DNA of 62,919 bases, counting the filler, from Rhabdomonas costata (Eukaryota), in assembly GCA_019059605.1 (NCBI GenBank). It is 43 parts of 43 records of this genome, joined end to end, with 100 filler letters (N's around TTAATTAATTAA, not from the genome) between each part and the next. Parts side by side here need not be neighbours in the genome. Positions count along the whole stretch, not along the records: positions 60,078 to 61,448 come from JAHMHO010017928.1; 42 more parts are not named here. One strand, given 5' to 3'. The position numbers and the translations under genes were made by a program. Under the pieces are notes generated by a model. That model did not search any database and was not told the origin of the DNA. It worked only from the letters and a program-made list of their open reading frames with translations. Shown here in pieces: positions 9,172-61,427 of the stretch; position 1 is the first letter of the stretch, and every line of letters starts with the position of its first letter.

Positions 9172-10261
9172 GCGTTCTTTTTTTCCCACTCACTCCAACG
9201 CTTTTCCTCCATCTTCACAGCACTCATGCGGGTAAAACAACCTGGGGTGGATGAGGTGGAGGCACCTGGACTCCTTGTGGAAGATTTTGGGGTCAACTGA
9301 GGGAAAGAGATAGTGAGAGAGAGGGGAGCAGAGATGACCAACTTCATCCGTCGCTGTGGGAGAGATGCTTTCCATTTGCTGAAATGGGGCGGGCAGTGGA
9401 AGGTGGGGGAGGTGCTCAAGGGATGAGAAGATGATAGATGTAAGTGGAGGAGGTGAGTCGAGTGTGGCGGGGAGCGGAGAGCGGGGAGATGGGCAAACCC
9501 AGAGGAGGGCCAGGGGTGCAGGAACGGCAGGCAGGAGTGATCGTCCTTTTCTTGGGGGTTGGGGGCACGACATGTCTGTGGCCGCACTGTAGCACTGTTC
9601 TTCGCTGTGGCGCTTCCTTTCTGGGCTTCATTGTCTGGTGATCTCTCTAGAGAAAGATGCAAACCTGCTGTATTGTTTTTGAATTCCGACCAGTGAATTC
9701 CGACCAGTAATCATCATTTTTGCGCGTGTGTTAGTTTATGGTATTCAATTTTAACCCCTCTGTATTCTTTTTATTTCAAGGAATTTCCGGGTGCCCCGAC
9801 ACTTCACTCCCGATTTCCGGTTTCAGCCTTCAGATAAACAGCGGGGGGCTTTCCAGCAGCGTTGACATTAGGATGCATTTCATCCATGAAAAGCCGTAAT
9901 GTCTCTGCTTAGTTAATGCTCCTGTCCAGGCGGTGACGGGTTATTACACCACAACNNNNNNNNNNNNNNNNNNNNNNNNNNNNNNNNNNNNNNNNNNNNT
10001 TAATTAATTAANNNNNNNNNNNNNNNNNNNNNNNNNNNNNNNNNNNNNNNNNNNNGGTTGTGTGGACCGGGGACAGAAACCGACTGCGCCTGAGGCTCTT
10101 CACTGCTGTCATGTGCAGGTTTGTTTCGCTGAGGAAGTTCGCCTTTGGTTTTCTTGTCTTCGCGCGCGCTTGCGTGTGTGAAAACTCGAAAACAATCACA
10201 CACTTCAGAAAGCCGGCAAACATACCACCACTGGTGCTTGAAAAGTCCGCGAAAAGACATA

Positions 10262-11189
10262 CCCCAAAGCCACCGTCCTCAGAAACCAGCGTCACCCGCA
10301 GACCCTCGCCCTGCGAAAGCGCCTGGAAGTCCAGACGCGTCGACGGCAGGTCCCCGTGCGCCGCGCAGCAGTTCTGCACCACAGGCACCTTCAGCGCGGC
10401 CCGCACCGCGGCCATGCCCTCGCGGCGGACGTGAATTTGGTGGCAGTGGGGCCCGGCCTGGCATCTGCCGTCAAAATGCATTATACATACCGAAGACAAA
10501 GTGAGAAAATAGTTAATGAAAAACATGACGTACATGAGTGAGCGTTCCACTTCGAGAGGTCATGTACTCAACGGCTTGCGAATGGTGGCGCAGCCGGGCA
10601 TCTTTCTTACGCATCAAGATCCAGTGTTCAACCGAAGGCGCGTTTCAAATGGCACTGGAACGCTATCTTTTTGTACTGCAAGGCTCGTGTACTCGGGAGA
10701 ACTAATGATAACTCAGTGAAACTCATGATAATGCGATGAGTCAGAAGCCCCCCCCCATCACTTTTGTCACCTTTCGGTTTCGTTAACTTGACCCAACTGA
10801 CCCTCCAATAAATCTCCAAACGTTGGAAACCCTATTTTCGGTAATGAGCGCACAAGCGTAAAATTTATCGAGCATGAATGAAGCTATTGTGATCCAAACC
10901 TCACAAAACTCCTTCCGTGCCCCAACACAAGCGCCACCCAAAGCAAGAACGTGAAGGCTCTGACACACCTCTGGGCCTGGTACAGCAGGCACAGCGAGGG
11001 CGGGTGGGAGTCCGCCTTGGCGGAGTATACGTGGCACCGCCCCAGCCCCAGCGTAAGCTCTACCCAGGTCTTGGGCAGCCACAGCCGCCCATACGCCTTC
11101 AGTTCCGGGTCCAGTACAGGGATGGCCTCAGAGCTGGGCTGGAACAGGCTGGAAACCGGAAGCACCGTTGCTGCACTGTTGGCCGACAT
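10262..11189 (-). CDS. Multi-exon gene of unknown function (partial)
   Basis: GC-rich open segments MSANS...LYQAQ (about 10969..11189) and AGPHCHQIHV...EDGGFG (about 10262..10458) end in GT donors. Phases do not join directly, so the structure is incomplete. Confidence 0.45.
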
Positions 11190-14100: not shown

Positions 14101-15981
14101 ATGCCAAAATGTTTCGAAGTGCGGAGGGAATGGGGCATCAAAAGAAACGGCGAAACGGACGTTCAGGAAAACTGTGCAACGGTTCACTTCCAATAATTTC
14201 GGAAATTGCTTCAATGCTGTTGTGGAGCGAACTGTACGTATCGGCAGCTTGGCTGTAGGTGTGTATGGGTGGGCAGTGTACAGGGAAAGAGAAAGTGAGG
14301 GTGTCCAACCTGAAGAATCCCTGCAGGCTACGAGCGAGACAGCCGAGGACTGTGCAAAATAATGAGAAAAAGANNNNNNNNNNNNNNNNNNNNNNNNNNN
14401 NNNNNNNNNNNNNNNNNTTAATTAATTAANNNNNNNNNNNNNNNNNNNNNNNNNNNNNNNNNNNNNNNNNNNNGGGGTTTGGGTCAAAAACCACGGCAAG
14501 ACCAAATTACTACCACACTCTCCTTTTTGATCGACTTAAAACAACCTTCCAACACTCTTTGACTCAAACTACTGGTAAATACTCTTGGGAGTCTCCAAAC
14601 TTCCATTTTTGCAGTTACAGTTCCTCCGTAAGTGAACTGTGTGCTCCATGAACGTGTTGTCGGTGCGGACTTCCACGCTTTCTACCTGATTTCCGGGAAA
14701 TACATCATGAGATGTACCGTGCCACTCCAAACTGTGAGTTGCCGTATCTCATGGAATCCAGCTCTATTTCTTCTGCTGGCGCGACAATAGCTTGGCTTCC
14801 AGTGTAAACTGAGACACGGAAAACTGAATGTTTCAGATTATCCAGTCTCCAAAAAATGTTGTACTCAAAAATGTAGTAACAGAACCTTGTCTTCAAGTAA
14901 GCTAAAAAGAATCCCAGTTATCAAATATCTGGGCGTCACACACTGTGCCTATGGCGTGCGGTCTTATCTAACCAAAAACAAAGGTGACTGATACCTGGTA
15001 AGGAAGACGCCGGTTCATCTTTTTCTTCTCCACGATGATTATCCACGGCAGGAAATTTTCTGGGTTACCATCGTATGGTGGGAACTCTGGGTCCCGTTAC
15101 TGCAATTTCCTCAGTGCTACTGTCTCTCGACCTGTACCATCTGGGTTCGTACTCTCTGTCAACTTGTGAAGAGCTCTTGTCATCACTTGTGTTGTCGCAA
15201 CCTGATTCTGATTCATCAATCGCAAGGCATCTACCAACTGCACCAACTAAACCGCCTTCCCATTTACAACCTCGCTTGCTCGCGCACCTGCGCTTCGCAC
15301 TTCTCCTGCGGACTCCTCCGCTTGCTGGGACTAATTCGTCGGTGGTGTGGTCTTCTGCCTCACCGCCTCGCTTCGCTAAACTCGGAGGGTTGACTTGGGG
15401 TGAAATGGGCCGCCTACGGGCCAGTAGCAATTCCAATGCTACTCTACCTCCAAATTGTCCACTAACTCCTTCCTCTTTGGCTTCCAAATGGAGCGGCTGC
15501 ACAACCACAGTCCCACCCCAAACGTCCACACATATTGTCCCGCGCAGAAACACACCAAACCACTTGCACTTCCGTAATATAAGAAAAAAGGGGCAACCCC
15601 TTGGATTCCTGGCGCTCACTCCTTTTTCGTCGGTGGGGTTTTCCTTCCTCGCTCCTCTCTCTGCTTTGCTTGATCTCCTTGACTGTAGGCGGCCTTGTTC
15701 TTGATGGGCTTCGTCGTCTCTCTGGCCTGCCGTCGTTCTCCTTCTAATCCTGCTGAAAACAAACTTCTACAAAACTCTCCTCTCCAACCTCGCTCGATGA
15801 AATGCTTTGATGCCCCCCACCTCTTGATCTCATCCGCTGTCTTCTCNNNNNNNNNNNNNNNNNNNNNNNNNNNNNNNNNNNNNNNNNNNNTTAATTAATT
15901 AANNNNNNNNNNNNNNNNNNNNNNNNNNNNNNNNNNNNNNNNNNNNGTGTTGGGTTTGTTTTGTGTTGTGTGTGATCGTAC

Positions 15982-16420
15982 AGATCCGGAGGCCAACAGA
16001 CGAGGATAGATGGGTGCTGCTGGTTGGCAAAACGGCTGCACACCACCGGTGTTAGCAGCGGCCCTGGAGTCGGACCATTTGGGCCCCCTACGGGCGAAAT
16101 CCGGACTATGAAGAACGCACACACGTATTGGTACCCACCAAACAAGTGGTTCCATACACTGGAACCGGCATAGGGATGCGCTTGTACACACGCACAGGGA
16201 CACCGCCCCATGTCGCTCGGGGCTTTACAATAATAACGTTGAACCCCCTCCCCCATACACATACACAAGAGAACAAAACGATCCCTCTTCCTCCTCTTGC
16301 CACTCAGCGGCATGTGCGCATGCCTGGTGATGCAATCCTTGTGCGCGGTGAGGTTGCGAGATAGCATCGACGTCAGGGAGTGGGCATGGTCCCGACGGTC
16401 CCTCGGGCCTCTGGGCTCCT
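15982..16420 (-). CDS. WD40-repeat protein fragment, 2 exons joined by a probable GC-AG intron
   Basis: Exon 16324..16420 ends RNLTAHKDCIT. Exon 15982..16105 continues S-PDF...PRLLASGS then a GT donor. Intron 16106..16323. Confidence 0.6.
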
Positions 16421-18027
16421 CTGCGCGCACGCAGCGATGAATGGAAGGTAGCAGTCAACGACCCACAAGTTCCAAGCAAAACAGGCAAATAACACAGATA
16501 AGGATGGGGGTCTTATACCTGTTCTTCCAGAGGCAGGCCCATCCTATTAAACCAAGAAAGTTTATCGAGAAGCGTGGCCTGGCAAGGGGTTTCGGGTTAG
16601 GGTACGGTGCGTGCAACGTGGAGTGTCACCTTTCTTGGTTACTCCGTCCATGTGCACCCCTCCCCCGAGATTCCCACGTTGTACTTGGGCTGGGTTAGGT
16701 GGTGATGTGCGCTTCCTAAGGTGTTTATATGGGGTTAGGTGGTGATGCACGTTATCCCAGTTGCACACATGATGCGGCATCTCCCAACCGCTGAACTGGC
16801 TGAGGAGAGGATAGAGCCGGGGGGGGGGCGTTGCCACGATTATGGGTGAGTCGAAGAAAAATGAGATTGGCTTTTCTTCTAACATGACATTGGACCCGCC
16901 GACATGGGGTCGGGGGAGGGGAGTGGCCGAGTTCGTTTTTGTCGGAGAGATGGACTGATCAAAAGAAGTGAGCCAATGGGTTGTACTGTAAGCCACAGAC
17001 GTGGAAAGCAGAGATCGGACACAAACCTACAAAAGCAACAAGCGTCGGTTCGGGCACCCGGCCAGTGTAATGGCACAGGCGGGGGAGGCGCGGCACGTAC
17101 AAAAAGAAAACAAGCACAATCATGAGGAGGAGGCAGTGGTGGAGGTAGTGGTGGTGGTGGCGGCGGCTCTCTCTCATTCTCTTTCACTCGCTCGCTATCT
17201 CGCTCGCTCGTAGGGCGAAGCAAGTAGCAGAGGGAGACCATATGTAAATCCAAATTTCACCATTTTGCACCAAGCAGAGAAGCATGTCGAGGCGGTCGCC
17301 CCCAACCAAACACACCCACCNNNNNNNNNNNNNNNNNNNNNNNNNNNNNNNNNNNNNNNNNNNNTTAATTAATTAANNNNNNNNNNNNNNNNNNNNNNNN
17401 NNNNNNNNNNNNNNNNNNNNCCAGAAGCCTCAACAGGACCGATTGGTTGGTGTATAGGTTTTCTCGTGTGTTTATGTGTGAGAAAGGCCATGCCAATGCT
17501 TATGAGGTTTCCCAACAACCACAATCGCAATACATGCACTTTGCGTGAATGCGTGTGCGAAAACCGTCAATTCAAGTTTCGCCACTGAACTCAAGCATAC
17601 ACCCCGAAGCAACCTATGGCCCCTGGCTCAGTCTGGCCCCTGAAAGTCGTGGTTGAAGTGGGGCGATAGAGTTGATTCCCCCATCACGCCTGGAAAGACC
17701 AGCGTTTGGATTATGGTTCGATTTCGGTGCCTAAGTCGATATCCGTACCAGTGTTTATTCTTCACACCCAGCTCAGTGCATTTGGGAGTTCCCGATTCTC
17801 ACGGTTAGGGCTCACGGATAGGGTCACTCGCAGGGACTGAGGCAAACGACACTGTTTGGGGGCAAACCCTGAGGGAAAACCCGAGTGAGATGACTATGTT
17901 GGTGGGGACAGACGCGCGTTGCGCACACAAGAGAGGTGGCAGTCGTTTAAAGAGGATCTCTCTCGGTGCTGTCTTAGGATGTCAGGCAGAAGAAGATTCG
18001 AAGTGAGGCCACTGAGTGACAACTACA

Positions 18028-18094
18028 CTTGGCGACCGCAGAGGGTAGGAGCTACCCGAAACGGCGGTTTAATGGGCCATTGAGGCGTTCCAAG
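18028..18094 (+). ncRNA. Degenerate type I hammerhead ribozyme-like motif
   Basis: CTTGG/CCAAG stem I, GA-GGGTAG-gag-CTACCC-GAAAC stem II and core, ACG/CGT-T stem III. The CUGANGA box is non-canonical (CGACCGCAGA). Confidence 0.3.
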
Positions 18095-18353
18095 ACTCTC
18101 CGCAGCAGAGGGGTGAGCCGCAATTATGAAGTTTAACCAACACCCAGTCTGTCAGCCTCAAGGGTTAGGGTTAGAAGCCACTACACACCACGCAAATGGA
18201 GCCGAAGCACGAGATTTTAAGCCGAAGTAATCCGAAGTACTACGCACTACCTCTCCGATTCCGGGGTGACACAAGAGAATTGGTTCACATCGGGAGACCA
18301 GCAAATCCTTCCGACAGATAGGGGCTGCCGGAAGATACCTGAACTGTATGTAT

Positions 18354-18493
18354 GCGCCTTTTCCCTTAAGCCTGGGACCCACAGGGCTGGCGGGAGCATC
18401 CTGGCCTATCTTGTGGTGAGCCGGTACCCCGCGGCACCTGATAGTGTTATAAGACCCCCGGGCGAGCACCCAGGCTGCGTGTGTCTTGACTAG
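18354..18493 (+). repeat. Diverged partial copy of the structured interspersed repeat (copy C)
   Basis: Shares GCCTGGGAC, GGTGAGCCGGYACCCC, TATARGACCC and GCGAGCACCCAGG...CTGCG..TCTT with 60879..61080. Confidence 0.75.
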
Positions 18494-21048
18494 TTCTTGG
18501 TTTGGGTGACAGGGACAGTGTATTCATCTGCAGATGTTTGTATATGTTTGTGCCCGAAAGAAAAAAGAAGGAGGAGAAGAGGAAGGGAAAGAAAAGGGAA
18601 AATGTCATTCGAGTACCACACCCACCCCACTAGATCCCGCACTGCTTTCTGATATCCCCATCGCACGCACAGGAGCACACACCGGCGCCTGGCGGCAGCG
18701 ACGATGCCCTGCACGGTGCGTCGGCCCAGGATGTGGCGGCGGGTCAGAGCGTGGCGGGCTCGCAGCGCGTTTCGCCGGAGCTCCCACAAACCNNNNNNNN
18801 NNNNNNNNNNNNNNNNNNNNNNNNNNNNNNNNNNNNTTAATTAATTAANNNNNNNNNNNNNNNNNNNNNNNNNNNNNNNNNNNNNNNNNNNNGAGCGTGT
18901 GGGTAGTTTGGTCTGTGAATGTAGCAAAAGTGACGGTGAGTTGAGTGTTTTTTGTGGTTTGGAGATCAAGGGTTGACTGAGAGCTGCGGTTTTGTGGTTC
19001 GGAGTTCAATGGTTGCCTTCACGAGCTTACTCAGCTTCTCACCTTTCTTTTTGCTCCTCGTGTTCACTTATATCACTAGCACTGTGTCGAATCAAGCTAT
19101 ATACTCCTTTATGTTTCAAAAATTATGATAAAAAAGGCGCTTGCATACACCCCCCAGAATTACAGCGTTTACATCACTTTTTACTGCAGCATTTCACAGT
19201 GCTGGCAATTGAAAGCACATTGGTTTGCTGTATTGCTGTTCTAACGTGCAGATTTTGATTTTCGGAGTGCTTTTCCACGCGCTCTAAACTGAAAAGCTGA
19301 TGAAAAACGCCACAGTAAAAAATAAAAACGAATTAATTGTCCCTGTGCTTCATAATGTGCCTGTACATTTAAATTGGTTGAGTTCTTCAAAAAGTGTTTT
19401 TGGAATATAAGCATTGGACAACAAAGTGGCATTTTACACAGCGCAGAAACCCACGCGCCTGGCAGCGGTGGTTAATACCCGCGGTTGGTGTCTCGCGTTT
19501 TTGAACTTCGAAGCTGAAATGAACGATTCGGTTGAGTATAACTGCAGGAGAGGAAGTGTCTATGCAATTGCGTGGCTGTGACTCTGGGCGTTGGTGGGTG
19601 TCTTCGTTATGTGCTCCGGGTTGTGGATGCAGCGGCGAAGCACGGGTTTACATAGTATCGCCTGCAGCCGTGCAGTTGTTCCTGTTATTGCATAATAGAT
19701 GTGATCGGTATTACATATTGGGTTCCGCGCCCGTGAGGACACAGTCACCAACAACCGAACATCCACCAGCAACATCCAGCTCGCAATGCGCCGATAAACA
19801 CAAAACCCCCTCTATCCTATCCAAGCAGTCTAGCAGTGGTGTGATCCATGGCGCATTAATTTCGGGGGAATTTCCTCGTGGGTTCATTTTTTTCTTTCTG
19901 TGGTATTATGTGGTGCTTGAGACGTAGAGAATTTTCACGTAACGCAGTGGAGTGTACAAGCGCGTAGCAGTATTAGTGGGTTCATCATCAGGTAGTTGAC
20001 CTACATCTCTTTCTTGATCCTTTGTAATCACCCTGATCCAAGCTGAAATTGGTCAGATTATTTCGGTCAAGACTGCGACTTAAAAGCCAATGGAACGAAA
20101 CGGATCTGCGCTACTACGGAATATGTCCGCCACGATGTCATTTATATAAAATTTTGTATGGTCTGATATGCCGTTGTTTCGGTTATTATTGTGAAAAATG
20201 GTACGAAATTATGAAGCCAAGCTTGTCATTTAATTTTTACTGAATCGGCATTATGGCAAAACAANNNNNNNNNNNNNNNNNNNNNNNNNNNNNNNNNNNN
20301 NNNNNNNNTTAATTAATTAANNNNNNNNNNNNNNNNNNNNNNNNNNNNNNNNNNNNNNNNNNNNGGGTGGGGGGGCCATGGTTCGAGTGAAGGTGTGCCG
20401 GTGGGTAGTGCGTGCGTGCGTGTTGCGTGTATGCGGGTGCGGAAAGACGCCAGCCGTGAACACCCCAATAAGAGCAGAGCGGGGAGGCGGAGGAGAGAAG
20501 AAGCCGAAACCGCGCAGGAGACGACGGGCGAGTGCTTGTGCAATGAGGAAGGAGAGACGACGAGAGAGATGAGGGAAGCAATCCTCGAAAGGAGTACCTG
20601 GTAGGGGCATTTCCGCACTTTAAGCCGGTGTCTTGGAGGGGAGGTGCTCTTGGTGCACCTAACACTGTGGCAAAGACATACCACATCGAATCAGGGTGCA
20701 GAGCTCTAAATGGTTGTTGATTTTTCACAGGGAGGATGGAAGGAAAAGGGTCCGGTCATGGGAGGGAAAGATGGAAAACGAATGGGGTCGGGGCGGTGGG
20801 TGAAGATGAAGGAAATGAGGGAATATGGCAGGGATTTGGCCGGGGACGACAGCAGGCGGAAAGACAAGGAAAGGGAAAGGCACCAAACGTGGTATGTTAG
20901 GAGTGCTGATGTGTACGGAGGCTGACAGGAAGCGGGAAAAGCAACGACGGAAGGCTGACGAAGGATGGACGAACACGAACCAAGTGGGAAAAAACACAAA
21001 ACCACTCGCAGGACGCAGTAACACTGAACACTAAACACGGGAGGGGGG

Positions 21049-27729: not shown

Positions 27730-27813
27730 GGTGTACTCCGCAGCTAAGGCTGGAACGTTGGGGAGGTCCTGGGGTCCTCCTCATACATCCACGCCTTAGC
27801 TGCGGAGTACACC
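27730..27813. repeat. Inverted repeat (21-bp arms, 42-nt spacer) at contig start; probable fold-back
   Basis: 27730..27750 GGTGTACTCCGCAGCTAAGGC is the exact reverse complement of 27793..27813. Confidence 0.9.
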
Positions 27814-30254
27814 TCTACCCCGGCCACCATCGGGGTCACCTGGCAGTTCGCAGTCTCTGGCGGCTGGGTGTACGATTCCAATGTTCGCGCGTATTGCTCA
27901 AGTATGCCCTCGTTTTTCACGCTACGCTCTGCCCGCGAGTAGGAGAGGATAAACAGGTAAGTGTGCTTCTGGTTAATCTCCGTCAGCGTAGCTTGGGGTC
28001 TGCTGTGACCTGGCTGGAGCTCACAGAGATCTTGGTCCACCGATTCTTTTCACTGCCATATCCGCCTCGGTTGATCGCATCCTTCTTTCTTTCCTTTCAT
28101 GCACCCACCAGTGCTGTTTAAATGGCGGTCTGCTCTTCTGCTCACTTTGGTGCGCAGAAAACATGATCATAAGAGCATTTGAACTTCTGCTTCACCGCTG
28201 GCAGAGCACGACAGTAGCAACGCAACGTTGTACTCATAGATTGTTGGTTCAAAGTCCCGGTCTTCAGATCGGCATATGGACATGTTTATTTGAATAACCG
28301 GTAGCGAAAAAAATATATGCAGCAACAGGAAAGGCACTAACCCAATAAAATTACGGGTTAACTACTTCAATTTTCGGTGGTCCTTCAGTATTTGACCTTG
28401 ACAGCATCATTTGTTGAGAGATATCTGATTCTCATCAATTTGGTACGGATACAGCACATGCCAACATGGCTAAACAGAGAAAGAAAGATGGATTGTCAAA
28501 TATTTTCCTCTGCGAAAACACTGGCCGTCCCAAAATTCGCACCACTTTCCGCATTCCGCAGTTTTAGTATATATATAAACGTGTCCACAGCGAAGTATCG
28601 CCATCCTCCCGCATTCTGCCTGCTTTTTTCCTTGCTCTGTTATTGTTCTGCACACTTTCCTAACTGCTCCCCCTTTTTGTTTCATTTTTGGGGTTGTGTT
28701 TTGCTTCGAAGATAAAGCCGTTTTGGAAAAAGGATGGGGAAACTGGGGGCTTCGTCCCAAGAGGATTCCATATCAGCCGTACGGACATTCGAATAGCGAG
28801 CTTTTGTTACATGAGAGGCTTCTGGAAGAGGCTTCTGCAGCCTAATTAAAACCACAACCGGCCGAAGGTGAAAGGTCAAAGAATTCCGACCCCAAGGACC
28901 GGCCACGCAGCGTTTCGGGAGGCCTGCTGTATTTACAAAAGACCCCAGGGCTGCTTCGGTTTAGCCCTCGGTGTGCGTTTTCGCTCAATGTGAAAAAAGT
29001 AAGTTAAGACACTTCAAAAAAGATTTCAACCGTTGCATAGCTTGTGCTGGCGTCCTTCCTGCATATTCATCATCCTAAAGGAGCTGCCCCCCAACANNNN
29101 NNNNNNNNNNNNNNNNNNNNNNNNNNNNNNNNNNNNNNNNTTAATTAATTAANNNNNNNNNNNNNNNNNNNNNNNNNNNNNNNNNNNNNNNNNNNNGGGT
29201 GCTATGCAACAGTTAGTGTCGATGCCAATTTAACCACGGGCTTCGAGCCACGCGCTGCGTATTAAATGTTGTGGGGTTGGTCTTCACCCGCAAAATCGAA
29301 AAAACTACAGAAAGCAGGAATGGTGGCAGGGGCGTTTCTTCTTGTTGTGGGGGTAGGTGTTCCTTCGCCCCCGTGGTGACAAATTTGGTGACTTTGGTTG
29401 TAGTGAGATGGGAAGGGTAGCCTCGCGTACACCACCCAGCCCCCGGAAATGGTATCGTCCACCCAACTGCAATCTGGAAACAATGTCGCCCATGAAAAAA
29501 TCCCTCCGCCCCTGTTCTGCAGATCGTAGTTCCCTTAAGTGTTTTTCCTTTTTATTTTGAGTCGGGGGTGCTTTTTGAATCGTCCGGTGGGTTTCAGAGC
29601 GTCGCGGCAGCAGCCCTCGAATCTTTCGCCCAGGCGGGGCTCCCGGCCACCACGGTACGTCTCTCCAGAAGAGATGCCAGCGCTGGACAAGGGTTCGCCT
29701 GTGAAGTCTCCCTCTCCTTTCCTGACCTCTCCGTCCGTTTCTGCGCGTATTTTGGGGCCTGAAGCACTTCAAAAAGTGCGCCGCAGCAGGCATGGCCAGG
29801 TGAACGAAAATGCCTATAAGATGGTGCTCTGAGTCCCTCCACTTCCCCATTTCAGCTTTGTCGGGCTATTTTCGAACCTTTGATTGTTCTTGCGTCCAAG
29901 GTTGCTCCACGGTGACCAATTATAATTGGCAGAAAACAGGACCCGAGGAGCCTTTGCAAGCGAGAAGGTGAATTTTTGTCCATTTTTCCATAGTGATGGG
30001 CCCCTTTTTGAATCGAGTTTGTCAATTTCAAAGTAGCAAAATTGTAGGGCTCTTGTGGATAAAGACTTATGGACCAAATGAGTTTCATAGTGCTGCAGTC
30101 TTTTTTCATTTCAAAAACACACATGATGCAAAGCGTTCGCAAACCAAGCTGCTTTGTTCCGTTTGCATCATGGGCATCGTGCTGATAAAAATCAAACCCA
30201 AAACTTTCTGATTTGTTAGGGTGACAACTCAGAAAAACACCCAGAAACCGACCT

Positions 30255-32162: not shown

Positions 32163-33327
32163 TTGTGTGAAAACGACGTTCAGCAGGGCCAGCAGGGTGC
32201 GGGCGGGCAGCCGCGCCGCGATGGGGGTAAACTCCACAAGGTCCGCGAACAGCACCGTGGCCTGAGGTGGGTGTGCCCAGACATGCCCGAACCAAAGGAG
32301 GAGAGAGGCAGGAATCAATGAGTGTGAGTATGATAGGCAGGCGTGTGAGTCTTCCCATGGGTGCCGTGAACACTCACACGACTTGCTCGAGTGAATGCTT
32401 TCCGCGCACCGGCGGCCCTTGACAATCGCAATGGGTGATCCAGAAATCGCAATCATTCAAAAGGAGGATGTTGAGTTGCAGGGAGAGAGAGCAGGGTGCC
32501 TGGGTGGACTGCGCGGGTGAAGTCCTTGATCAGCAGGTACCAGGTTAGAACGCCGTATAATGCATGAAGTAAGGACAGTGCTCTCTATATTGTTTTTGAT
32601 ACAAACAGTAAACACCTGCCAAACCGCCCACCACCGACTACTATCAATTCTTTTGTATAACAAAAACAACATTGGGTTGTAGTAAGACGCCCCCCCCCCT
32701 GCTATTCACTTTTTGCGTAGCGATCGCTACGCAACTTTTGCGGCGGGCTTAAGGGTGATGGACGTGTCCCCTGGAATTCTAATACAAGCTTTTGCAGGGT
32801 TCAGAGGCGATGCACGCATCCCTTGGGAAGTTTCCACGACGTCTGCCTTGGGCCGCGGAGCGCAGCGGAGCTCCGCTGCGCTCCGCGGCCCAAGATCCAA
32901 AACATAGGTACTACCACACTTCTGGAATGAGTATCCTCGGCATGTGTAGCAATCACGCGGGTCTGCGTAACGGGGGGGTTCGTCTAATATACTACGCCCC
33001 ATCATTGAGGGGGTGACTCCCCTCGAGGCCTTTTGAACTAATGTCATCAGGCCTGAGCCCGTAGCCAGAAGAGAGAGAGGCGCTGCTCCTGCTGAGGCCA
33101 CACCGAGAACCTCCCGTACTTGCCAGGAGTCTCTCCTCTATCCCGAAGCAGAGGGTGGCCGTCTGCCGCACCACCCCTCCACTCCATGCTGTGAGGAAGA
33201 AAAGAGAACACACCATGGGGTGGACCCGGGCCAGCTGCAGGGTGCAAGCGGACAGGGAGGCCCCTGTCTTCAGGGCCCCCGCGATCTTGGACGACATCTC
33301 CACGGGAAGAACCTGGTCCAGCACCAC
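32163..33327 (-). CDS. Class III adenylyl/guanylyl cyclase, partial, multi-exon
   Basis: Exon from 33327 VVLDQVLPVEMSSKI (pre-catalytic helix). Exon from 32261 ATVLFADLVEFTPIAARLPARTLLALLNVVFT, with the first metal-binding Asp intact. Confidence 0.85.
32679..32995. mobile_element. MITE-like element with imperfect TIRs and two perfect internal palindromes
   Basis: Left end GTAGTAAGACG-C10; right end G7-TTCGTCTAATATACTAC. Palindromes at 32713..32734 (22 bp) and 32847..32894 (48 bp). Confidence 0.6.
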
Positions 33328-33929: not shown

Positions 33930-36557
33930 CTACAGCGCGAAAAATGAAGAAGAAGAAGAAGAAGGTGCAAACAGCCTTGGGGGGAGGGACGGGTCCTTGC
34001 AATGCACATCTGAATCTCTTTAAACTCGCAACAGCGTTTCCAAGCAAAGCTAAACAACACTGTTCGAAGCTGCACACAAAGTGAAACAAAGTTGGACGAA
34101 GTTGGGGAGTCCACACAACTCGGGAAGAGGAAATTTTTGCGGATATGGGTGGGAGGAGGGACGGACTCCTTGTTACCCGCTTCCACCACAATAGAAGAGC
34201 GGATGCAAACAACGGCTTTTTTTTTTACGGAGCACCGGTGTAACTGGAAAATTTTCACATGAAGGTATCACAAAGATATCTGCACCGCCAACCTGAAGAA
34301 GTGTGGAGCAGGTCACCCACTGCGTCCCATTGTCGCTGTATTGCACCTGAGAGATGGCGTCAAGTTAAAAGCACCCCCAACTCCCAACTTGCCAGCATTA
34401 TAGACCAGCTGACGATGACACACAAAACGGCATGCTGCTGTTGCGACATCGATGCGACAACATGCGACAACGCATCCTTGCTTTCACAATTCTTCTGCTT
34501 CTTTTGGGGAAGGTTCAATGAAAAGTGTGGGCAAAACAGGCAGAACGGCTTTTTCAACCCTAAAGGTTTAAAAATTCCAGGAGAATTCGAAGGGAATGCA
34601 AAACAATCAGAAAACGGCCACCATGACTGCAAACGAGAGTGTGGGATGAGCTGTGACTGCGAACTCAGAATTTCTTGGATGCTGCGAAGCTGTAGTGTGG
34701 TGTGCAGCTGATGCAGTTGTGTAAGCACCCCAAAACAAAATAGCCTCGATATGGTGGGCTGTTGTGTTTTTCTTGGGGAGAGTCCCCGCGTCCTTTTGGA
34801 ATCTTCCCTTGTGATTTGCGTTTGCTAAGAGAGGAGGGAACCAATTTCGGGTTCTGCACGCCGCAGAGAACGTGTGGGAGGGAGAGAATGCGCGCTACAC
34901 TTCAGGTCGCACCTCCGTGGAATCGCTTTCAACCTCCCACACGTTCTCTGCGGCGTGCAGAACCCGAAATTGGTTCCCCCCAACANNNNNNNNNNNNNNN
35001 NNNNNNNNNNNNNNNNNNNNNNNNNNNNNTTAATTAATTAANNNNNNNNNNNNNNNNNNNNNNNNNNNNNNNNNNNNNNNNNNNNGCTCCGTGGATGACT
35101 ACCGCCTGCTCTCCGAGGCGGCCCCGCCCGATGCCGCCACGATGGCTGCCCTCTCCTCGAAAATTCGTCCCGTCTGCTGAGGTGGGCATCTACGGGATTA
35201 CTCAGCTGCGGCAAGGCCGCACCCAATCTTGTACCGGCGCCTTCTTAGGCGCAACGGGGTGTACTTTAGCAGGGAAGGGCTGGCCAGTGATGCAGACTGT
35301 ACTTTACAAGCCCTTTTCAAACTTTCTTGATGGTTGTGGCACAGTAAGGAGGATTGGAGGTTATTCCAAGGTTTCCGTGAAGAATGCATCGGTGGCAGCC
35401 GCTGTCACTCTATAACTTTGCTGTAAGGAAAACCTGAGATAAGCTACTCCTCTGGGAAGGAGGAGGTGAGAAGCTCTAATTCCCGTTCTCTTGGAATGGG
35501 TTTCCTCCGAACGGGGACTAGGGAGGGCGTCTGGAACCTCCAAGTCATCTGCTTCAAAGGATTCAGATGACTTGGAGATAAGGCAGGGTTGCTGCACTCA
35601 TGAACAAGCGGGGGATGAGGCTGTGAGACTTTGGGACTTCCGCCGCTTGTACACCATGCGCATCACGGCTTGGAGGCAACCTGCATGGATAACAATTCTT
35701 TCCAATCCCGAGGTGCAGCTCTGGTGTCAGCTTAGCAGGTTTACCTTGTAGATCTGCCTTGTTGCGAACAATTTTCCGGGGAATGGTGAGCGTGAGGACG
35801 GCGATCTACCCGTGACCCGTTCAGCTTTATCGGAGGCAAATTGTTTTTCCGTTGCCTTTTGTTTTTTGTATGCGGTGGATGCTTTGGCGAGTCTCTGTAC
35901 TGTGGCTTTGGCTGGCTGGGGCTCCCCTGTGCGACGCCCTGACCGCGCTCTCGGCGCTGTTCTTTCACCATGACCTCAGCCTCACCTTGTGCACTTCCGG
36001 GGAGTGCACCGTAATGGAGCTACAGCGCTACCACCCCACCTGCACCGAGGTGGCCTGCATGCTTGCCCTTCAGAGCAGCCCTGAGCTGTTTGCTGAGGTA
36101 TGGGCGCAGAATAGGGGTCCGATACATCTGGGGTACACCGTTTTAACCACTTTAAGCGATAAGATAACTACATGCTGTATGCTGGTAGGCTCGGCCTCCA
36201 GAAAACCCCCTTCATCTGTCGCTTTTGGCGGCGCATCACGAAGAAAATTCCCCCCAGTCCCCCCAGACAACCTGCCCGCCTCATCCGCCTGCTCCGGCTC
36301 GCCTCCTCAGCCCACTGCTTCGCGAACTGTCTCTCCTACTCCATCTCCAAGGAACAGTTCATCGCCCTTCCCGCGGAAAGTCACCGAAGCTTGCCCTGCT
36401 AATACGTACAAAAATTCAAGTAAAACACCGTTTAACAACCCTTCCCCCCAAAAAAAANNNNNNNNNNNNNNNNNNNNNNNNNNNNNNNNNNNNNNNNNNN
36501 NTTAATTAATTAANNNNNNNNNNNNNNNNNNNNNNNNNNNNNNNNNNNNNNNNNNNN

Positions 36558-37929
36558 TGTGGTGGGTGTGGGTGGTGGTTGGTGGAGATCAAGTGCGACA
36601 GCATGGTTTGTTTGTAACTGGGGTGCTTCTCCAACTCCAAGATGGCCTCATTCAAAAAGTTGCTCTGCAAATCGGCCACAAACTCCAACAGCAGCTGTGC
36701 ATGGCTATGCTCTTCAGCATTTAGGCAGCACATCTGAAGAGAAGCGTCTTCAGTAATTGGAGGAATCACAACTCCCTGCTGACACTGAAATTCCGCCACT
36801 GAGTTGCACACAAGATTCCACATCTTCCGAAAGGTACCAAAACACACTTTTGCTTTTCTTCGTAGCTCGAAGTTCTCAATTTGTTCCAGCAACTGTAAAA
36901 CTCCCAAAGAGTTCGCCTGCTCAGATGTGAACCGGTAGGAAAAACAAGATTTCACTAAACGGAGGAATTCCACCGCAGCAGGAAGACACACCACAGCTTC
37001 CAAGGCGACGCAACTGCGGAAAAACAGAGCCAAAAACGGGTACTGCTGGCACAGTGGCTGCTCGAGAGCTTGGGCAGCGATATCGCTGTAGGTGGGGATT
37101 GGGTAAAGCTGAAAAAGGGAGAGGAGGTTCTTTTCTTGGTATTCCACTTGAGCGTCGGGAGAAAGGGAAGTCCAGTCGAACGTGTTTTCAAGCTCTTGTA
37201 GAAGTCGACAGGATTTGCAATCTCTTTGCATCTCTCGCTTCAGCGCCTGGATGTCCACATCCGCGGTCTCGACAAAAGGCCCGAAGGAATCCGAAAGCAA
37301 CTTTTCAAGGTGCTGCCGCGGGGTTTCAGCACTAAGAGCCCAAATAGTCTCAGGAATCCTGAAAATCGCCAAATGGACAAAGTAACAGGCATCATCCTGA
37401 TTACAGTTGAGCACTTGCTGCATAATTGAGAGGTCGTTCTTTTGGTGACGAATAATAAACTGCTGCACGTCCGGCACTTGCTTGGCATTAAAGAATCCGG
37501 GCAGTTCTTGCAAACACGCGGGGTTTACAGAGGCAATCAGGAGCTGAAGGTGAAGCATAATACGAGCCAGCCTCAAGCAGACGGGCGTGCGCAACCCTCT
37601 CACAACCATTCTAGGGTCTTCGCTGTTGGCTTCCTGCAAAATATAGCCGGGCAAGTCCCTCGTCGCTTGTGCAACATCATTCACTTCCTGAACCCCAGCA
37701 ACCGGATTGTGCTGTTGACCGCCAATTTCGAGCCCACATGCACTGCACCGGGCAAGCTCCATTGGTCTTGTGCACTCTCCCACGTAGTAGGGCTCTCCAC
37801 ATCGACAGAGCCACAGGCCCAGACGCTGACCCTGGTTTTGTAAGGCGCGCTCCACTGACGCAAGGTCATTGTCTGGCATGCTTGGCAGCAGGAAACGTCG
37901 CAGGGACAAGGGCGCAAAGCACAAAACCC
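36558..37929 (-). CDS. RNF213-like E3 ligase C-terminal region with RZ finger (partial)
   Basis: Open frame of about 450 codons: FLLPSMPD, LCRCGEPYYVGECTRPMELARCSACGLEIGGQQH, PGYIL, RLARIMLH, YPFLALF, FRKMWN. This matches the motif order of the RNF213 RZ-CTD region. Confidence 0.85.
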
Positions 37930-40650: not shown

Positions 40651-42642
40651 CAACGAGCCATCGGGGGGCCAACCTCAACCCAACCGAGCGCTGAATTTAG
40701 AATGACGGGGAGCATTGGTGATCACTGTGAAGGGAAGAAAATATCATCTGTGCGAGCAAAGGAGACGCGATGGCTGCTGCGGCCCTCTCTGGCCATCTGA
40801 TAATTCTGTACCTTCATGACGGCACACGTCGAGAACCCAGAAGAAACCAGGGTGCTCGGTCCACAAACACANNNNNNNNNNNNNNNNNNNNNNNNNNNNN
40901 NNNNNNNNNNNNNNNTTAATTAATTAANNNNNNNNNNNNNNNNNNNNNNNNNNNNNNNNNNNNNNNNNNNNGGGGTGGTGGCTACCTCTCGTGTACCGCA
41001 CGTTGGGACCGAAGTTTGCTGGCCTAACCAATGTTGCGTGGACCTTGCGGACGGCATACACCGACATTCTCCTTCTGGACTTCGAGAAAGAAAACTTTTG
41101 TGGTAGGTGCGCAGTCGTTGGCCTTTACAACCTTTTCATTTTTCATTTTTTTTTAATTATTTCTTTTCGCTCTTGCAGGTGTGTAGGAAAAGCAGGTTAC
41201 ATAAACTATTAATGAACACGTGGTTTATCGGTGAAAAGAGCACGACCGAAAGAAAAAGTGAAGGGAAGGTGGTCGAATTCGCCTTGGAAAACTGGGCTTT
41301 GCAGTTTGTTTGCGCACTATTCTGTTCTTTTTGGAAACCGGGAGCCCACATCATGTAATGCTTCTTCTCAATGCTCAGTTGATGAGGCACCTTTGTTTTG
41401 TTTTGTTCAAGGAAAGCGATACTCCACCTGCGAAGAAGCATACCGGCTTTTCCATCCTGCGGAGGTCTGCGTGCCCTGTCCCACCCCCCTGCTCAACCTC
41501 TCCGACCCCAATTAATTTCAGCGTTTTCGGCGTTGCTCCCTCTCATCATGGACTTTCTCGATTTTCCCCACACAAACGCTTATGTGTTCGGTTTGCTGCC
41601 AGGGACCAGTATGGGATGCACTCACAATCTCACCGGGCCTTTCCAATACCAGCAGTTACAACAGCGCCGCATAGGGTGACGACTGTCCTGCTATGTTCTG
41701 ACTTGAGCCCTTGTCTATTTTTGTCCCTCTCCCAGTGGTTGCCTTGCCAAGCAAACGTCAACTTGGAATGCTGAGCGGCATCTGTCCTATGCTTCAGTTT
41801 AGAGATCTGCGGTGCGTTTCTTTCTCCCCTCACCCGTACCTCGCACCTCTCGCAGCTCTGTGATGGAGTGTTTCTGCGGTGTCACCGACCTCCGTTTCCG
41901 AGACTCAAGCAATCGTCGTGCTCCGGTGACGACGTCCCAAGCTGTTCCGCTGCGGCACCTTCTCGGGCACCTTCTGGCATCCCGGGACGCCATTTTCCCA
42001 CGGAAGGCGTTGCCGAGGTTTTGGCCAGCTCCCTCTTTCCCTCTCCTATCCACCCACAGTCGAAGTGCTGCTTATGATATGCAGAACTACGAACCCAAGT
42101 CCAGAACGCCAAGGCCCTCTGTGCATCTTCTGTGCATGTGGTTTTTTGTCAGCCCATCCTCAAACCCCCACACAATGGGAGAAGAGCGATTGAGAAAAAT
42201 AAAATGCACAATTGATCGAAACAAGAGATTCAAAACCAAAGAATCCTGAAGTAGTCTGAATCCCCATGACGAAAACAAACGAATGCATACGTGGCTTTTA
42301 TACAGGAACCTGATGAAAAAGTGAACACCACCACCAAACACACNNNNNNNNNNNNNNNNNNNNNNNNNNNNNNNNNNNNNNNNNNNNTTAATTAATTAAN
42401 NNNNNNNNNNNNNNNNNNNNNNNNNNNNNNNNNNNNNNNNNNNCCATTCATACGTCCTTGATAAACAGTTACACTTTACTTTTCTTTGTATGTGTGTGTT
42501 GGGCGCATTGAGCGCTGGCTGTTGCCTGGTTGCCTGTTAGTGACCACAGTGGACTGACGGGCGCACGCGCTGTCGGCCACGGATGCTCACAAGAGGTACC
42601 GTTGGAGCGAATGACGCCGTGGGGTACAACGGCTCACCGGTA

Positions 42643-43525
42643 AATTCGCTTCTGCCCCACGGGTTCTGGTCCTTTGTCGCGCAGCTGCTCTTTTCCAACG
42701 GCTACCTGCATGGCTCCATTACTTTATGTGCGTGTGCGTGTGCTGAAAACCTTGTCCGGGTTCCTGGGGAAGTTCTGCTCCACCTCCCGGACACGAAACC
42801 GCGACATGGGCGGGAACAGCACCTCGTCCTCCTGTTAGAAGGGCGATATTTTTTAATTGGGGTGGAGGGCAGTCCGAGTGAGCGAATCGCAAATCAGTCA
42901 ACGTGTCACAGAACAGGGTGCCATTCAACAGGCGCCCCTCCTCACGAGCTGCGAGGACCACGCTACTCTTTGGTATTTGGCTGATTTTCTTCTTGATTTG
43001 GGGACAGTTGTGTCGTTTGTTCGCGTTTGTGTATGTATGTGCGATGGTAAGACAGAAAAGAATCACGCACACACACACGTGAAGGAGAGCGATGAAGGAA
43101 AGAAAAGAAAAGGTGCCCCTAACCTAAGACGCGCGCAGCCTGGGTGCTCGCACGGAGGGTCCCATAGCTCTGTTGTCAGAAGTGGGGTGCCGAAGGTGGT
43201 GTGCCGGCTCTCCAAATGCATTCATCTGAAACCCCTTGCAGCCAAGACCCTCCGCCTGCCCCACGTGCCGGAGACAAAAACGCACGAAAGAAACTCTGTT
43301 TTCTCCCCCACCCGGCGCCCAACACTGGGGCGAGAAAACCTTGTCGAGGTGTGGTACATTTGGCACGCCCACTCCATTCCCAACCCAGAATGCGGGGAAG
43401 AAGTGCAAAGAACCGCCCATCCTGCGGCGGCACACGCACAACTCACCCCTGTGCACCACTCGGGCGGCCACGAGCAGCACCACACCTCAACCCAGGGCGT
43501 TGCTGATGAGGACACCACGCCACCA
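42643..43525 (-). CDS. Second R-S-E ADP-ribosyltransferase gene fragment
   Basis: Exon about 42750..42830 EDEVLFPPMSRFRVREV (ExE catalytic motif). Upstream pieces GRLLNGTLF (about 42912..42960) and VSSSAT (about 43495..43520). Exon junctions not fully resolved. Confidence 0.7.
43116..43359 (-). repeat. Structured interspersed repeat, copy B (inside ART gene intron)
   Basis: Reverse complement aligns with 60879..61080 from ATGYACCACACC to GCGCGCGTCTTAGSTTAGGGG, with internal insertions. Confidence 0.92.
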
Positions 43526-43953
43526 CTGGCAGGCAAGCAACTCACCCAAACAAACGCAACAGGGAGGACGACGGCTGGAATTCGCGCTCCTGGTCCGGGA
43601 GCAAAAGGGGGACGAAGCTGAGGCAACCCAAAGCCCCGCACGTACATCACCCACGCACTCACGAAGAGAGGGTCTCGGAGCAGTACATACACTCCGGCAA
43701 AAACAACACGCCCCAAATTTTAGCCACCAAGAAAACGACCTAACAGGAGGGGTAAGACTTTCATCATGGAAACCAAAGTATGATACCGGGGAAGGGGAAA
43801 AAGGAACAACAACCCNNNNNNNNNNNNNNNNNNNNNNNNNNNNNNNNNNNNNNNNNNNNTTAATTAATTAANNNNNNNNNNNNNNNNNNNNNNNNNNNNN
43901 NNNNNNNNNNNNNNNGGCAGATACCCAACGGCCAGTATACGTCTAGGTGCACT

Positions 43954-44929
43954 TCTGAATACCACCCCTATTGCACCTGGTGTTTGGGATCCATAATCGA
44001 CAGAAATTTGGTAAACGGCCAAGCCAACTGCATCGGTTTTGAGGTCCAAACGTCATGAGGGTCTAAGTCTGCACGCTTTCACGGTGTCGCCTTCCTAGAC
44101 GGGGTTGAGAGACAGATGCTGGCACTGTGTAAAATTGAGTAGTATGTGATACTGCACATCACGCAAACGGCACAGGCTCCACGATGCACAACTACGAAAC
44201 AATTGGGTGCTCCTTTGTCCACGTCTCGACGAACACTCCACTGAACCGAATGAAACAACTGAAAAACCCTCCCTTGGAGAGCAGGGTCCCCGCACTCCCA
44301 CCCCTGACTAATTTTAAGAGCGTTAAAGGTTGAGATGATCTCAGTATCTCTGTGTTATGCACGGACACTTACTATACTACGCATAAATTTTTTTAAAAAA
44401 AATCAATTTTTACAGAAGTAGTCTAAAACACGTTACATACACCTACAACAGAAACAATCACGTGCATGTAGTGAGTAGGACTGCTTCAGAGACGCTTGAA
44501 GCAAATGGTGAAATTGTATGTCAGAATTTTCTTGAGTTGTTGTTCAGCACCATATCATCCTACTTTTAGCCGTTTTGAATTAAAACATAAGAATTTTCAC
44601 CATTCCAGCAAAGAAGCATCATGCCCAACTGTCTCTCACTTCCTTTCTTTCCAGTAAAGATCTGACATGCGGAGAATCTTTGAATGTGCGATACAGTGAG
44701 GTGATATTTCTTTGGATTGAATTCCTGCCGATTGGGAGCTAAAAATGTCCTGCAAAAACGACGTGGTGGGGTGGTGCACTGCGAAATCGTATGTGGCATT
44801 TCGAACAAAGATCATCGTCCTTTCCGTGTGGGCGGGGTCTGAATTCCACCCCTATTGCACCTGGTGTTTGGGATCCATAATCGGCAGAAATTTGGTAAGG
44901 TCCAAACTTCATGAGGGTCTAAGTCTGCA
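43954..44929. repeat. Direct repeat pair (43954..44073 and 44838..44929)
   Basis: Near-identical TCTGAAT.CCACCCCTATTGCACCTGG...GAGGGTCTAAGTCTGCA. The second copy lacks 28 nt. Confidence 0.95.
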
Positions 44930-53351: not shown

Positions 53352-54285
53352 GTACGATGGGTTTAAACGCCGTGCACTTCTTGCCTGATTATGGACAGCG
53401 GATGCTGTTTTCGAATCTTTTGGACTTGCAGATATCGTTTCACTTTGCGGTTCTTTTCCTTGTGCTCCCTCACTGTTCAATCTGCCTACCTGTGTCACTC
53501 TGCCTAACGGTGCGGATTTCCTTGGTTTCATGGAGTTCAAATACCGGTGTGCTGGCCCGTTGCGTACACTGGTGCACTCGATTGTCGCATTGTCCGAGTT
53601 TTGCCATAGTTAAGGAATATTTGCCCCCATTCCTGTCGTCGTAAACACTGAGAAAAAAGATAAACAGCATCTCTCTGTCAGCGCGCAGAGGTCTTCGTCT
53701 GCAGGAGTGGAGTGGGGGGTGAGTTGTGGCGAAAGATTGGCATGCTTGCATGTTGTCTTTTGTGCTTTGTGGTTTTGCACGAAGGCCATCTGTGTTTCCT
53801 GCGGGGCTGGATGGAAGCTGGAAACCTCCGACGGGCGCTCACAGTGCGTTCCAGGTGTGCGCTTGTACGCTTGAGTATAGAGAAAAGACCCCAGGCCTGC
53901 TTCGGCTTTGCCCTCTTTGCTGTGCTCTTGTGTTCAGAGCTTATGTTTTGTTTTTTGGTGGATGGGGGTGGGATGGGGTCGAGGACTTCGCTTCGTCCCA
54001 ATGTAGTGTCGCGTCACGAAAATCAGACCCACACACCTGCGGAAGTTAAAACACCAGCTAAACATGTCGCATGCAAAGAGAATGAATATCACATGNNNNN
54101 NNNNNNNNNNNNNNNNNNNNNNNNNNNNNNNNNNNNNNNTTAATTAATTAANNNNNNNNNNNNNNNNNNNNNNNNNNNNNNNNNNNNNNNNNNNNGTTGT
54201 GCAAAAAAACAAATGTGGCCGCTTCCAGATGGAACAAATAAAGGCTGAAGCCGATGGTCTTACCAAGACATGGTGATAGGAATGC

Positions 54286-60386: not shown

Positions 60387-61427
60387 GTATACGCTGAGAA
60401 TAGGGCCTCGGGGTTCAGGCAGAGATTCGACTCCCTGCCTGACCTGCTGTTTGAGTGGCTACCTTACATCCAGAAGGGGCCGCCGGGCATGGGCCACATG
60501 GGATGGGTGCGCCTTTGCTTGCTTTCGAACCGCCTCCCCATTTGAGAATTGTGCAGACAATACAGAGTGGGTGGGTGGGGTATTCCGTAGAATGAACAGC
60601 CACTTTCTTTCAGTCCAGCAAATACTGTCATCTTAAACCAATATTCGTTTCCCTTGATGTATGCCTTTACTCCCGTATTATCTAAGGTTGTGCTTGCCCC
60701 ATTGGCAGCTTCAGTTGCAAAGCTGTTTTTTCCCCTTTTTTCAAGGATCAGTGCCTTGACTTCCTATCTTTTCGTTGAAGGCTGTCTCTTCTCCATTGTG
60801 TCGGGCTGGCTCAGCTTGCTAGCCTCCCTGGTGGTGGTTTCCCTTAATACGTGCCGTTTAGTTTGCAGAGAAGCGAGCATGCACCACACCCCGAAAAGGG
60901 TTTCTCGCCCCAGTGTTGGGCGCCGGGTGGGTGGCGCGTTTTTGTACTTATGCCTGGGACACATGGGGCAGGCGGAGGGTCTTGGCTTGTTGTCTGGTGA
61001 GCCGGCACCCCACGTCTGACAACAGAGCTATAGGACCCTCCGTGCGAGCACCCAGGGCTGCGCGCGTCTTAGCTTAGGGGAAGGTTGTCTTTTGTTTCAA
61101 TCATCGCGCTCCTTCACGTGCGTGTGTGTGTGCGTGTATGTGTGTGCTTCTTTGTCTGTACATCGTACAAACGCACAAACGTACACAAACGCTAACAAAC
61201 AGACACTCTAAGTCAAAGAAGAAGAAGAAACCGTGTGAACGTGTATCTTCCCGGATGATAATTGGCCTGTGCGCGCATTGTTGCCAGTCGACCCTTCGGC
61301 ACACATCCGGTATCCCCGCGCAGGCTGATGTGTGGCTCCTTGGGTTTGTGGCGGTCACTCTTCTGAGGTTCGTTCCTGTGCCAGGCATGCGGCTGACCAT
61401 CCTGCGCCGCTGGCTCTTCTGCCTGGG
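60387..61427 (+). CDS. Sphingomyelin/IPC synthase family protein, 2 exons, partial
   Basis: 60387..60506 DSLPDLLFEWLPYI (D1-like) splices in phase to 61324..61427 ADVWLLGFVAVTLLRF...TILRRWLFCLG (start of the D2 RR motif). Confidence 0.75.
60879..61080 (+). repeat. Structured interspersed repeat, copy A (inside sphingolipid synthase intron)
   Basis: Homologous to 43116..43359(-) and 18354..18493(+). Contains nested complementary segments. Confidence 0.92.

Follow-up and report, generated by a model that had tools for sequence, protein, structure and literature searches.

The window analyzed here is a stretch of 62,919 nucleotides from the euglenid Rhabdomonas costata (NCBI GenBank assembly GCA_019059605.1), composed of 43 unrelated contigs of 1,119-1,375 bp (~1.37 kb) that are ordered longest first and spaced by runs of N around ttaattaattaa. 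Three of these contigs carry a structured repeat, here called element E: copy A lies on the contig at 60078-61448, copy B on that at 42444-43815, and copy C on that at 17421-18792. We describe it as a non-coding interspersed repeat of a Rhabdomonas-type euglenid, uncatalogued in that it has no Rfam match; a non-autonomous, retroelement-like nature fits it best, a reading in which we place about even confidence. An original prediction had proposed a structured repeat of ~200 nt with copies at 60879-61080 (+), 43116-43359 (-), and 18354-18493 (+). All three copies exist, each on its own contig, and the stems and the stem exchange described for C were borne out as well, whereas the extent and terminus of the repeat and its placement within introns, sense to host genes, were not.

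Copies, extent, and coding potential

Aligned with blastn, copies A and B share 72.5% identity over 371 columns (E 3e-57), and A and C share 75% over 125 columns (E 2e-15); both similarities are far beyond chance. The A/B similarity spans 60879 to at least 61206 in A and 43359 to 43010 in B. Rather than ~200 nt, the element in A, B, and a metagenome contig (L001, described below) measures ~350 bp, and the TTAGGG-like tail that had been taken as its terminus is internal, as A/B similarity continues to 61206 and past. The A/B element extends ~135-150 nt beyond this tail, to a purine-rich (AAG)n tail of variable length at which the similarity ends (61216-61232, +, in A and 42985-42993 in B; also present in L001). 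The whole element in A occupies 60880-61232 (+), with first letters TGCACCACACC and the purine-rich tail at its end. By segment, A/B identity is 0.77 upstream of the core, 0.72 in the core (0.91 minus an insertion in B), and 0.72 downstream; a further 300 nt upstream and 200 nt downstream of the element are at shuffle level. Between A and L001, identity is 0.84 in the core, 0.53 upstream, and 0.57 downstream, so that the core is the best-kept segment. Cores within the one genome diverge by 16-28%, and the fold is nevertheless kept.

Six copies were read in all: A, B, C, a fourth copy in the window (B2), and two on L001 (M1 and M2). Their cores were scored in bits with a covariance model of the core, R1. 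Copy B (42994-43358, -; core 43114-43277) scores 102.2 bits; as predicted, the 9-bp stem is still present, the outer 5' strand is gone (GTCTCCGG), and two insertions, of 5 nt and 27 nt, add 32 nt in total. Copy C (18354-18495, +) scores 117.8 bits and consists of the core module only, sharing just ~140 nt with A and B. Its flanks resemble those of A, B, and L001 no more than shuffled sequence does (upstream, the similarity is reached by 686, 730, and 594 of 1000 shuffles; downstream by 62, 551, and 500 of 1000). A 47-nt purine run follows C at 18556-18602, without a significant link to the core.

Contig L001 (1,052 bp) came from a single search of metagenome contigs, for which the query pattern was drawn from the core's 3' side. 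It holds two same-strand copies arranged head-to-tail, 906 bp apart and ~98% alike, which score 152-164 bits with R1; M1 is cut off by the contig end. As a chance control for the model, the best of 83 loci sharing an 18-mer (80 prokaryote, 3 viral) reached 20.0 bits, and we rejected the matches in prokaryote and viral collections (at least 120 18-mer matches, and 3+5 viral matches) as chance by comparison with the L001 scores.

A probable degenerate and shortened core, B2, lies at 42582-42666 (-), ~600 bp downstream of B and on the same strand. Because its R1 score (17.6 bits, E 0.005) is no better than that of the chance loci, its identification is based on collinear exact matches: 13/13 and 20/23 positions with L001, and, upstream, 12/12 positions of GACAAGGTTTTC (a score reached by 2 of 1000 shuffles). 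The 315 nt upstream of B (43359-43673, -) form a non-coding region, which we call X, that shares homology with the sequence separating the L001 copies; the B region and L001 align at 66.6% identity over 608 columns (blastn). The upstream flanks of A, C, and B2 were considered as further homologs of X and rejected, the similarity not being significant. Element E thus occurs alone (A) and together with X in head-to-tail units of 0.6-0.9 kb (B with B2, and L001), and its core occurs alone elsewhere (C).

Presence on 3 of 43 contigs (95% confidence interval 1.5-19%) means that the repeat is probably high-copy, as had been proposed. If the contigs are a random sample, extrapolation gives ~5,500 loci (95% confidence interval 1,100-16,000) in the 106.9-Mb draft assembly, which has 143,763 contigs, an N50 of 1,194, and 51.6% GC, figures in keeping with the contig sizes and ~50% GC of the window; the main text of the assembly paper has no mention of transposable elements (PMC8219788).

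None of the 59 open reading frames (ORFs; at least 45 aa) on the three element contigs reaches the Pfam cut-off. The X regions of B and L001 are separated by 1-nt indels, and their ORFs share 33% identity over 40 aa, though the DNA is ~66-70% identical. The one relative retrieved in a protein search with a 130-aa L001 ORF of X (P0001) follows three L001 frames successively. Because the Pfam search was negative, B and L001 differ by 1-nt indels, and P0001 runs across three frames, the unit is non-coding. We rejected a protein-coding unit on the frame changes of P0001, on a protein match far worse than the DNA match, and on the ORF downstream of A, which is unrelated. An antisense 74-aa frame of A had no match in the protein search for further copies. 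With no Pfam match among the ORFs and with non-coding conserved flanks, the proposed position in introns, sense to host genes, finds no support.

In a further reading, E would be the long terminal repeat (LTR) of a miniature, non-coding LTR retroelement (TRIM-like), X its internal region, and A a solo LTR. The L001 pair is ~98% alike, against 16-35% divergence otherwise in the family; in A, B, and L001 alike, E starts with TG, and a TCA directly precedes its purine tail; and 26 nt after the tail L001 carries TGGCGCCCG, a sequence with which tRNA-Lys-type primer-binding sites begin. The similarity of the purine stretches before E, however, is not significant (equalled in 165 of 500 shuffles), and the candidate primer-binding site has no counterpart in A, only a degraded one in B, and seemingly none in the relative behind P0001. 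In addition, B and B2 are far too different for the pair of one element, and no target-site duplication was found at A. We consider this reading very improbable. As a separate observation, TGGCGCCCG at L001 774-782 (-) overlaps an ATG and is degraded at the collinear place in B; the 9-mer is not enriched window-wide, and it may be either a primer-binding-site-like motif or a start codon context.

Anatomy and folding of the core module

The core module of copy A (60950-61082, +; 146.3 bits with R1) is a rod-like hairpin built from an outer helix, a 9-bp helix, a covarying helix, and an apical GGTG/CACC pairing. The stems lie where the original prediction had placed them: CCTGGG at 60953-58 with CCCAGG at 61051-56, CGGAGGGTC at 60973-81 with GACCCTCCG at 61034-42, GTTGTC at 60989-94 with GACAAC at 61018-23, and GGTG/CACC enclosing AGCCGG. 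In C, the exchanged stem CTATC (18406-10)/GATAG (18440-44) is likewise in place and in register with A; the 56-nt apical block is free of indels between the two copies, and pairs 46-107 and 48-105 have changed on both sides.

Across five cores, the 33-pair hairpin is paired in 88.3% of 163 cells, vs. 42-52% in six controls slid by 1-3 columns. Six pairs have changed on both sides, compared with 3.3 +/- 1.1 in shuffles (12 of 500 reach six) and 0-3 in the slid controls; five of the six fall within one 9-bp helix that has a different sequence in A, C, and L001. A second, 8-bp pairing joins an internal loop to the apical loop. Its 5' internal-loop motif (60961-60968, +; ACATGGGG in A, CCGTGGGG in L001 and B2) is the reverse complement of the apical motif CCCCACGT at 61008-61015 (+), and 90% of its cells are paired, vs. 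32-55% when slid, with two pairs changed on both sides. Hairpin and loop-loop pairings both show two-sided changes, and the fold is kept by compensatory change, as had been surmised from C alone. In the long copies the loop-loop pairing appears sterically incompatible with the ~35-bp rod, which points to alternative conformers or to intermolecular pairing.

The apical loop holds a hexamer at 61001-61006 (+) that stays self-complementary despite change (GCCGGC in A and B, ACCGGT in L001); it reads GCCGGT in C and is lacking in B2. From this self-complementarity we can only infer a possible role in RNA dimerization. At the base of the module, the TTAGGG-like tail GTCTTAGCTTAGGGG (61066-61080, +) pairs with GCCTGGGAC, the 5' strand of the outer helix (60952-60960), as an alternative basal helix in RNAalifold and in the minimum-free-energy fold of L001; 86.7% of its cells pair, but there is no covariation.

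The same data bear on a reading of the repeat as a family of structured non-coding RNA genes, in which the ~140-nt core would be expressed as a discrete RNA from genes repeated in tandem and separated by spacers; B and B2, and C perhaps too, would then count as paralogues or pseudogenes. Two helices covary, unpaired motifs are kept (internal loop, GCGAGCA, apical loop), the core is better kept than its flanks and also occurs in an unrelated context (C), and the layout is tandem at two loci; euglenozoan small-RNA genes are often arranged in tandem. Unlike homogenized small-RNA gene arrays, however, paralogues in this one genome differ by ~25% with compensations, thousands of copies are implied, no Rfam family matches, a T-run stands directly upstream, and C has no clear terminator. 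On balance we regard RNA genes as unlikely.

Outside the core, copy A carries a small upstream hairpin, CGCCC-CAGTGTT-GGGCG (60906-60922, +), that is kept in A, B, and L001, where the block CGCCCCAGTGT(T/C)GGGCG is invariant in the alignments; it was not found in C. Directly 5' of the core is a (CG)n block followed by a T5 run (60934-60943, +; T4-T7 in other copies, as read from them). The (CG)n block could pair with CGCGC at 61061-61065, a weak pairing because (CG)n is self-complementary. Between the TTAGGG-like tail and the purine tail lies an AG-free tract (61083-61200, +) made up of a pyrimidine run, (GT)n, and ACAAAC repeats. In A it forms a 119-nt AG-to-AG gap, among the six longest of 3,648 in the window; its length is ~123 nt in B and 78 nt in L001.

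The outer helix brings in another reading, in which the repeat is an introner-like mobile hairpin excisable from transcripts by the euglenid nonconventional-intron machinery. The splicing code of these introns, genetically defined in Euglena, is given as 5'-N3-C-D'-G ... C-H'-G-N5-6 / R, the slash marking the cut (PMC12501133), and the accounts cited, in the parts available, suspect a MITE-like (miniature inverted-repeat transposable element) origin and name no source family (PMC12501133, PMC11282704). In three of the four judgeable cores the outer helix formally fits this code: A reads TGC-CTG ... CAG-GGCTGC/G, with a predicted excised segment at 60951-61061, and both C and the L001 copy M2 read AGC-CTG ... 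CAG-GCTGC/G. As in those introns, a hairpin would juxtapose two defined points, with code and spacers as described in A, C, and L001; the element differs in being conserved past the would-be splice sites, in having no recognizable exons, and in that its excision is a prediction (compare PMC12501133 and PMC11282704). B departs from the code (CTC), and by a rough estimate, not a computation, a 6-8-bp GC-rich helix fits the triplet pair by chance about 1 time in 5. Conserved non-coding element sequence extends past the predicted cut sites on both sides, and the Pfam search of 59 ORFs on the three contigs found no host gene. We accordingly see only a slim chance that the core hairpin is a mobile module bearing the splicing code on its outer helix (N3-CTG ... 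CAG-N5/6/G) and excisable when in genes.

Affinities of the element

Searches of catalogued RNAs support the earlier description of the repeat as uncatalogued. Rfam 15 gave no match in the window at the gathering score and none over the core of A at E<=10; in L001 it gave only unrelated hairpin-type matches (E 0.5-7). ARAGORN found no tRNA-like genes in the window or in L001 and hence no tRNA-like head, and with no tRNA, 5S, or signal recognition particle match in Rfam, we saw no head of the tRNA-, 5S-, or 7SL-derived kinds known from short interspersed elements (SINEs). The A-rich or simple-repeat 3' tail of SINEs and non-LTR retroposons does have a counterpart in the purine-rich tail of A, B, and L001. 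A Helitron-like element, which the original prediction had also entertained, is contradicted by the collinearity of A, B, and L001 for 135-160 nt past the supposed 3' end; CTAG followed by T, the Helitron-type CTRR/T ending, occurs at the end of the core in C only.

A non-autonomous, probably RNA-mediated repeat fits best with the high copy number, the decayed members (B, with its insertion and lost strand, and B2), the variable purine tail, the compensating paralogues, and the best-kept core. The four copies on 3 of 43 unrelated contigs speak for the same reading, as do the covarying long-range pairing, the head-to-tail layout of L001 and of B with B2, the non-coding nature of the unit, and the lack of any Rfam or tRNA match, and a non-autonomous mobile element was among the classes proposed earlier. 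Such an element would be transcribed as part of longer RNAs. Its core fold would be a cis signal needed by the propagation machinery, for example for recognition by a reverse transcriptase encoded elsewhere, and/or would allow RNA dimerization via the self-complementary apical hexamer. If the core fold is this signal, master copies would retain it, whereas flanks would drift and dead copies such as B and B2 would decay.

Several observations weigh against a retroelement-like origin. The internal T5-T7 run argues against an RNA polymerase III transcript. In line with the original prediction, the check for a target-site duplication, which covered A only, found none: a single 8-mer at 1 mismatch turned up, vs. 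0.98 expected, and the settings 7/0, 10/2, and 12/3 (length/mismatches) gave nothing, though a duplication may have been lost in old copies. The material examined showed neither an autonomous partner nor a reverse transcriptase or internal promoter, and the head-to-tail units with X are not predicted by simple SINE insertion. Folding-energy z scores are unexceptional in four of five element-strand folds (A -1.67, B -1.44, C +0.43, and another +0.30), with only L001 reaching -2.88 (opposite strand, -2.56). The strand signal is weak, with 14 G.U vs. 5 A.C cells in the hairpin, and A.C accounts for all three mismatches of the long-range helix, a pattern that would fit the opposite strand. Finally, the covariation counts are small, as the copies amount to just three or four effectively independent lineages.

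Part of this evidence would also fit a palindromic satellite or dispersed repeat at the DNA level, without RNA function, whose compensations arose by chance or through repair or gene conversion. Both strands fold about equally (-54.9 vs. -49.0 kcal/mol in A and -73.4 vs. -69.0 in L001), the excess of G.U over A.C is small, the layout is tandem, and the independent lineages are few. Yet the 6 + 2 two-sided pair changes exceed both slid and shuffled controls, the helix sequence differs in three lineages while staying in register, and unpaired loops are conserved too. This reading seems to us distinctly unlikely.

The retroelement-like reading can be set beside several known systems. The non-autonomous trypanosomatid retroposons SIDER, RIME, and NARTc, which carry the Pr77 hallmark, share with E a euglenozoan host, a short, non-coding, and high-copy nature, a structured RNA module that is conserved, and an A-rich end (PMC1874656, PMC4748587, PMC4035085). 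By eye, positions 8-20 of the 77-nt Pr77 oligo (PMC1874656) match the element apex TGAGCCGGCACC (60998-61009) at 11 of 13 positions with one gap, and a CCTGG...CCAGGG pair and TCT(T)AG then come in the same order as in the element; L001 copies and C match less well than A. The matching pieces are P2/P3 strands in L1Tc and the apical loop in the element, and because these positions are structurally non-equivalent, the matches are probably coincidental. In addition, Pr77 occupies a 5'-terminal position and the R. costata core an internal one, and an HDV-like (hepatitis delta virus-like) fold would be impossible in the long copies. HDV-like ribozymes form a nested double pseudoknot in which P1 and P2 are about equally long and the J4/2 strand carries the catalytic C. 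Read by eye, the strand topology for such a ribozyme is right (5' motif, 5' arm of the rod, GGT/ACC mini-hairpin, apical motif, 3' arm of the rod), but A, C, and L001 have a ~35-bp 'P2' rod, a 3-nt linker, and no J4/2 strand; the short B2 alone would sterically fit.

Some SINE families share conserved central 'core' domains, and 'stringent' pairs of SINEs and long interspersed elements (LINEs) share 3' stem-loops. Element E resembles core-domain SINEs in having a well-kept central to 3'-proximal module common to copies with different flanks (C vs. A and B), a simple-repeat tail after the module, and a fold kept by compensation. It differs in having no tRNA-, 5S-, or 7SL-like head, no known partner LINE, and no duplication at A, and head-to-tail units with a second segment such as X are atypical for them. 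Retroviruses and retrotransposons carry dimerization hairpins, which the apical hexamer recalls in being self-complementary within a loop and in keeping its complementarity on change. The parallel is confined to design; the hexamer is gone from B2, and neither gag nor pol accompanies the element.

Nuclear genomes of euglenids are large and rich in repeats and have hardly been annotated. A repeat present on maybe several percent of contigs could help explain the fragmentation of this assembly, and knowing the element helps in masking repeats and in comparisons among euglenid genomes. The fold, with its loop-loop complementarity and apical hexamer, is a candidate cis-acting RNA signal of a euglenozoan retroelement. 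At lower odds, the repeat could serve to test whether nonconventional introns arose from transposons, as has been proposed; were the intron-seeding reading true, it would be the first sequence family caught seeding them, the accounts cited naming no such element so far in the parts available (PMC12501133, PMC11282704). Were it ordinary decayed repeat DNA, three "intronic structured RNAs" would be removed from the list.

Other observations in the window

Three further interpretations were tried and rejected. Because joints between contigs recur along the window, a 1.47-kb periodicity or long-range inverted repeats across it are artefacts; kinetoplast minicircles were set aside on this ground, the periodicity being that of the N/ttaattaattaa joints between concatenated contigs, and because the universal minicircle 12-mer is not present in the window. 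A spliced-leader RNA gene was rejected since the published R. costata leader end CATTTTTTCG (PMC8219788) is not in the window. A telomeric or telomerase-derived tail was rejected on the count of TTAGGG-like 12-mers (5 found vs. 3.45 expected in the window) and on the lack of the tail in C. Two perfect telomere-type units, GGGTTAGGGTTAG, do stand at 18161-18173, ~200 nt upstream of C, and are not enriched window-wide.

Long self-inverted repeats occur within several contigs or at their ends, at 2591-2844 (contig 1474-2844; 254 nt, 91%), 34833-34981 (149 nt, 78%), 27730-27813 (84 nt, 80%), and 32847-32894 (a perfect 48-nt palindrome). They may be real palindromes or fold-back chimeras of whole-genome amplification, which is mentioned in the description of this assembly (PMC8219788).

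Long open frames run off contig ends at 36560-37927 (-; 456 aa) and 171-1373 (-; ~400 aa). The 456-aa frame, on the contig at 36558-37929, has no relative among proteins of 250-798 aa and so probably represents a fragment of some much longer protein. On the contig at 43916-45287, a 61-nt direct repeat (97%) at 43954-44014 and 44838-44898, 884 bp apart, is accompanied by an adjacent 32-nt repeat. Two contigs share a 41-nt stretch (85%; 28929-28969 and 53875-53915) that includes a small hairpin, CCAGGGCTGCTTCGG...GCCC, and may represent another short element of dispersed type.

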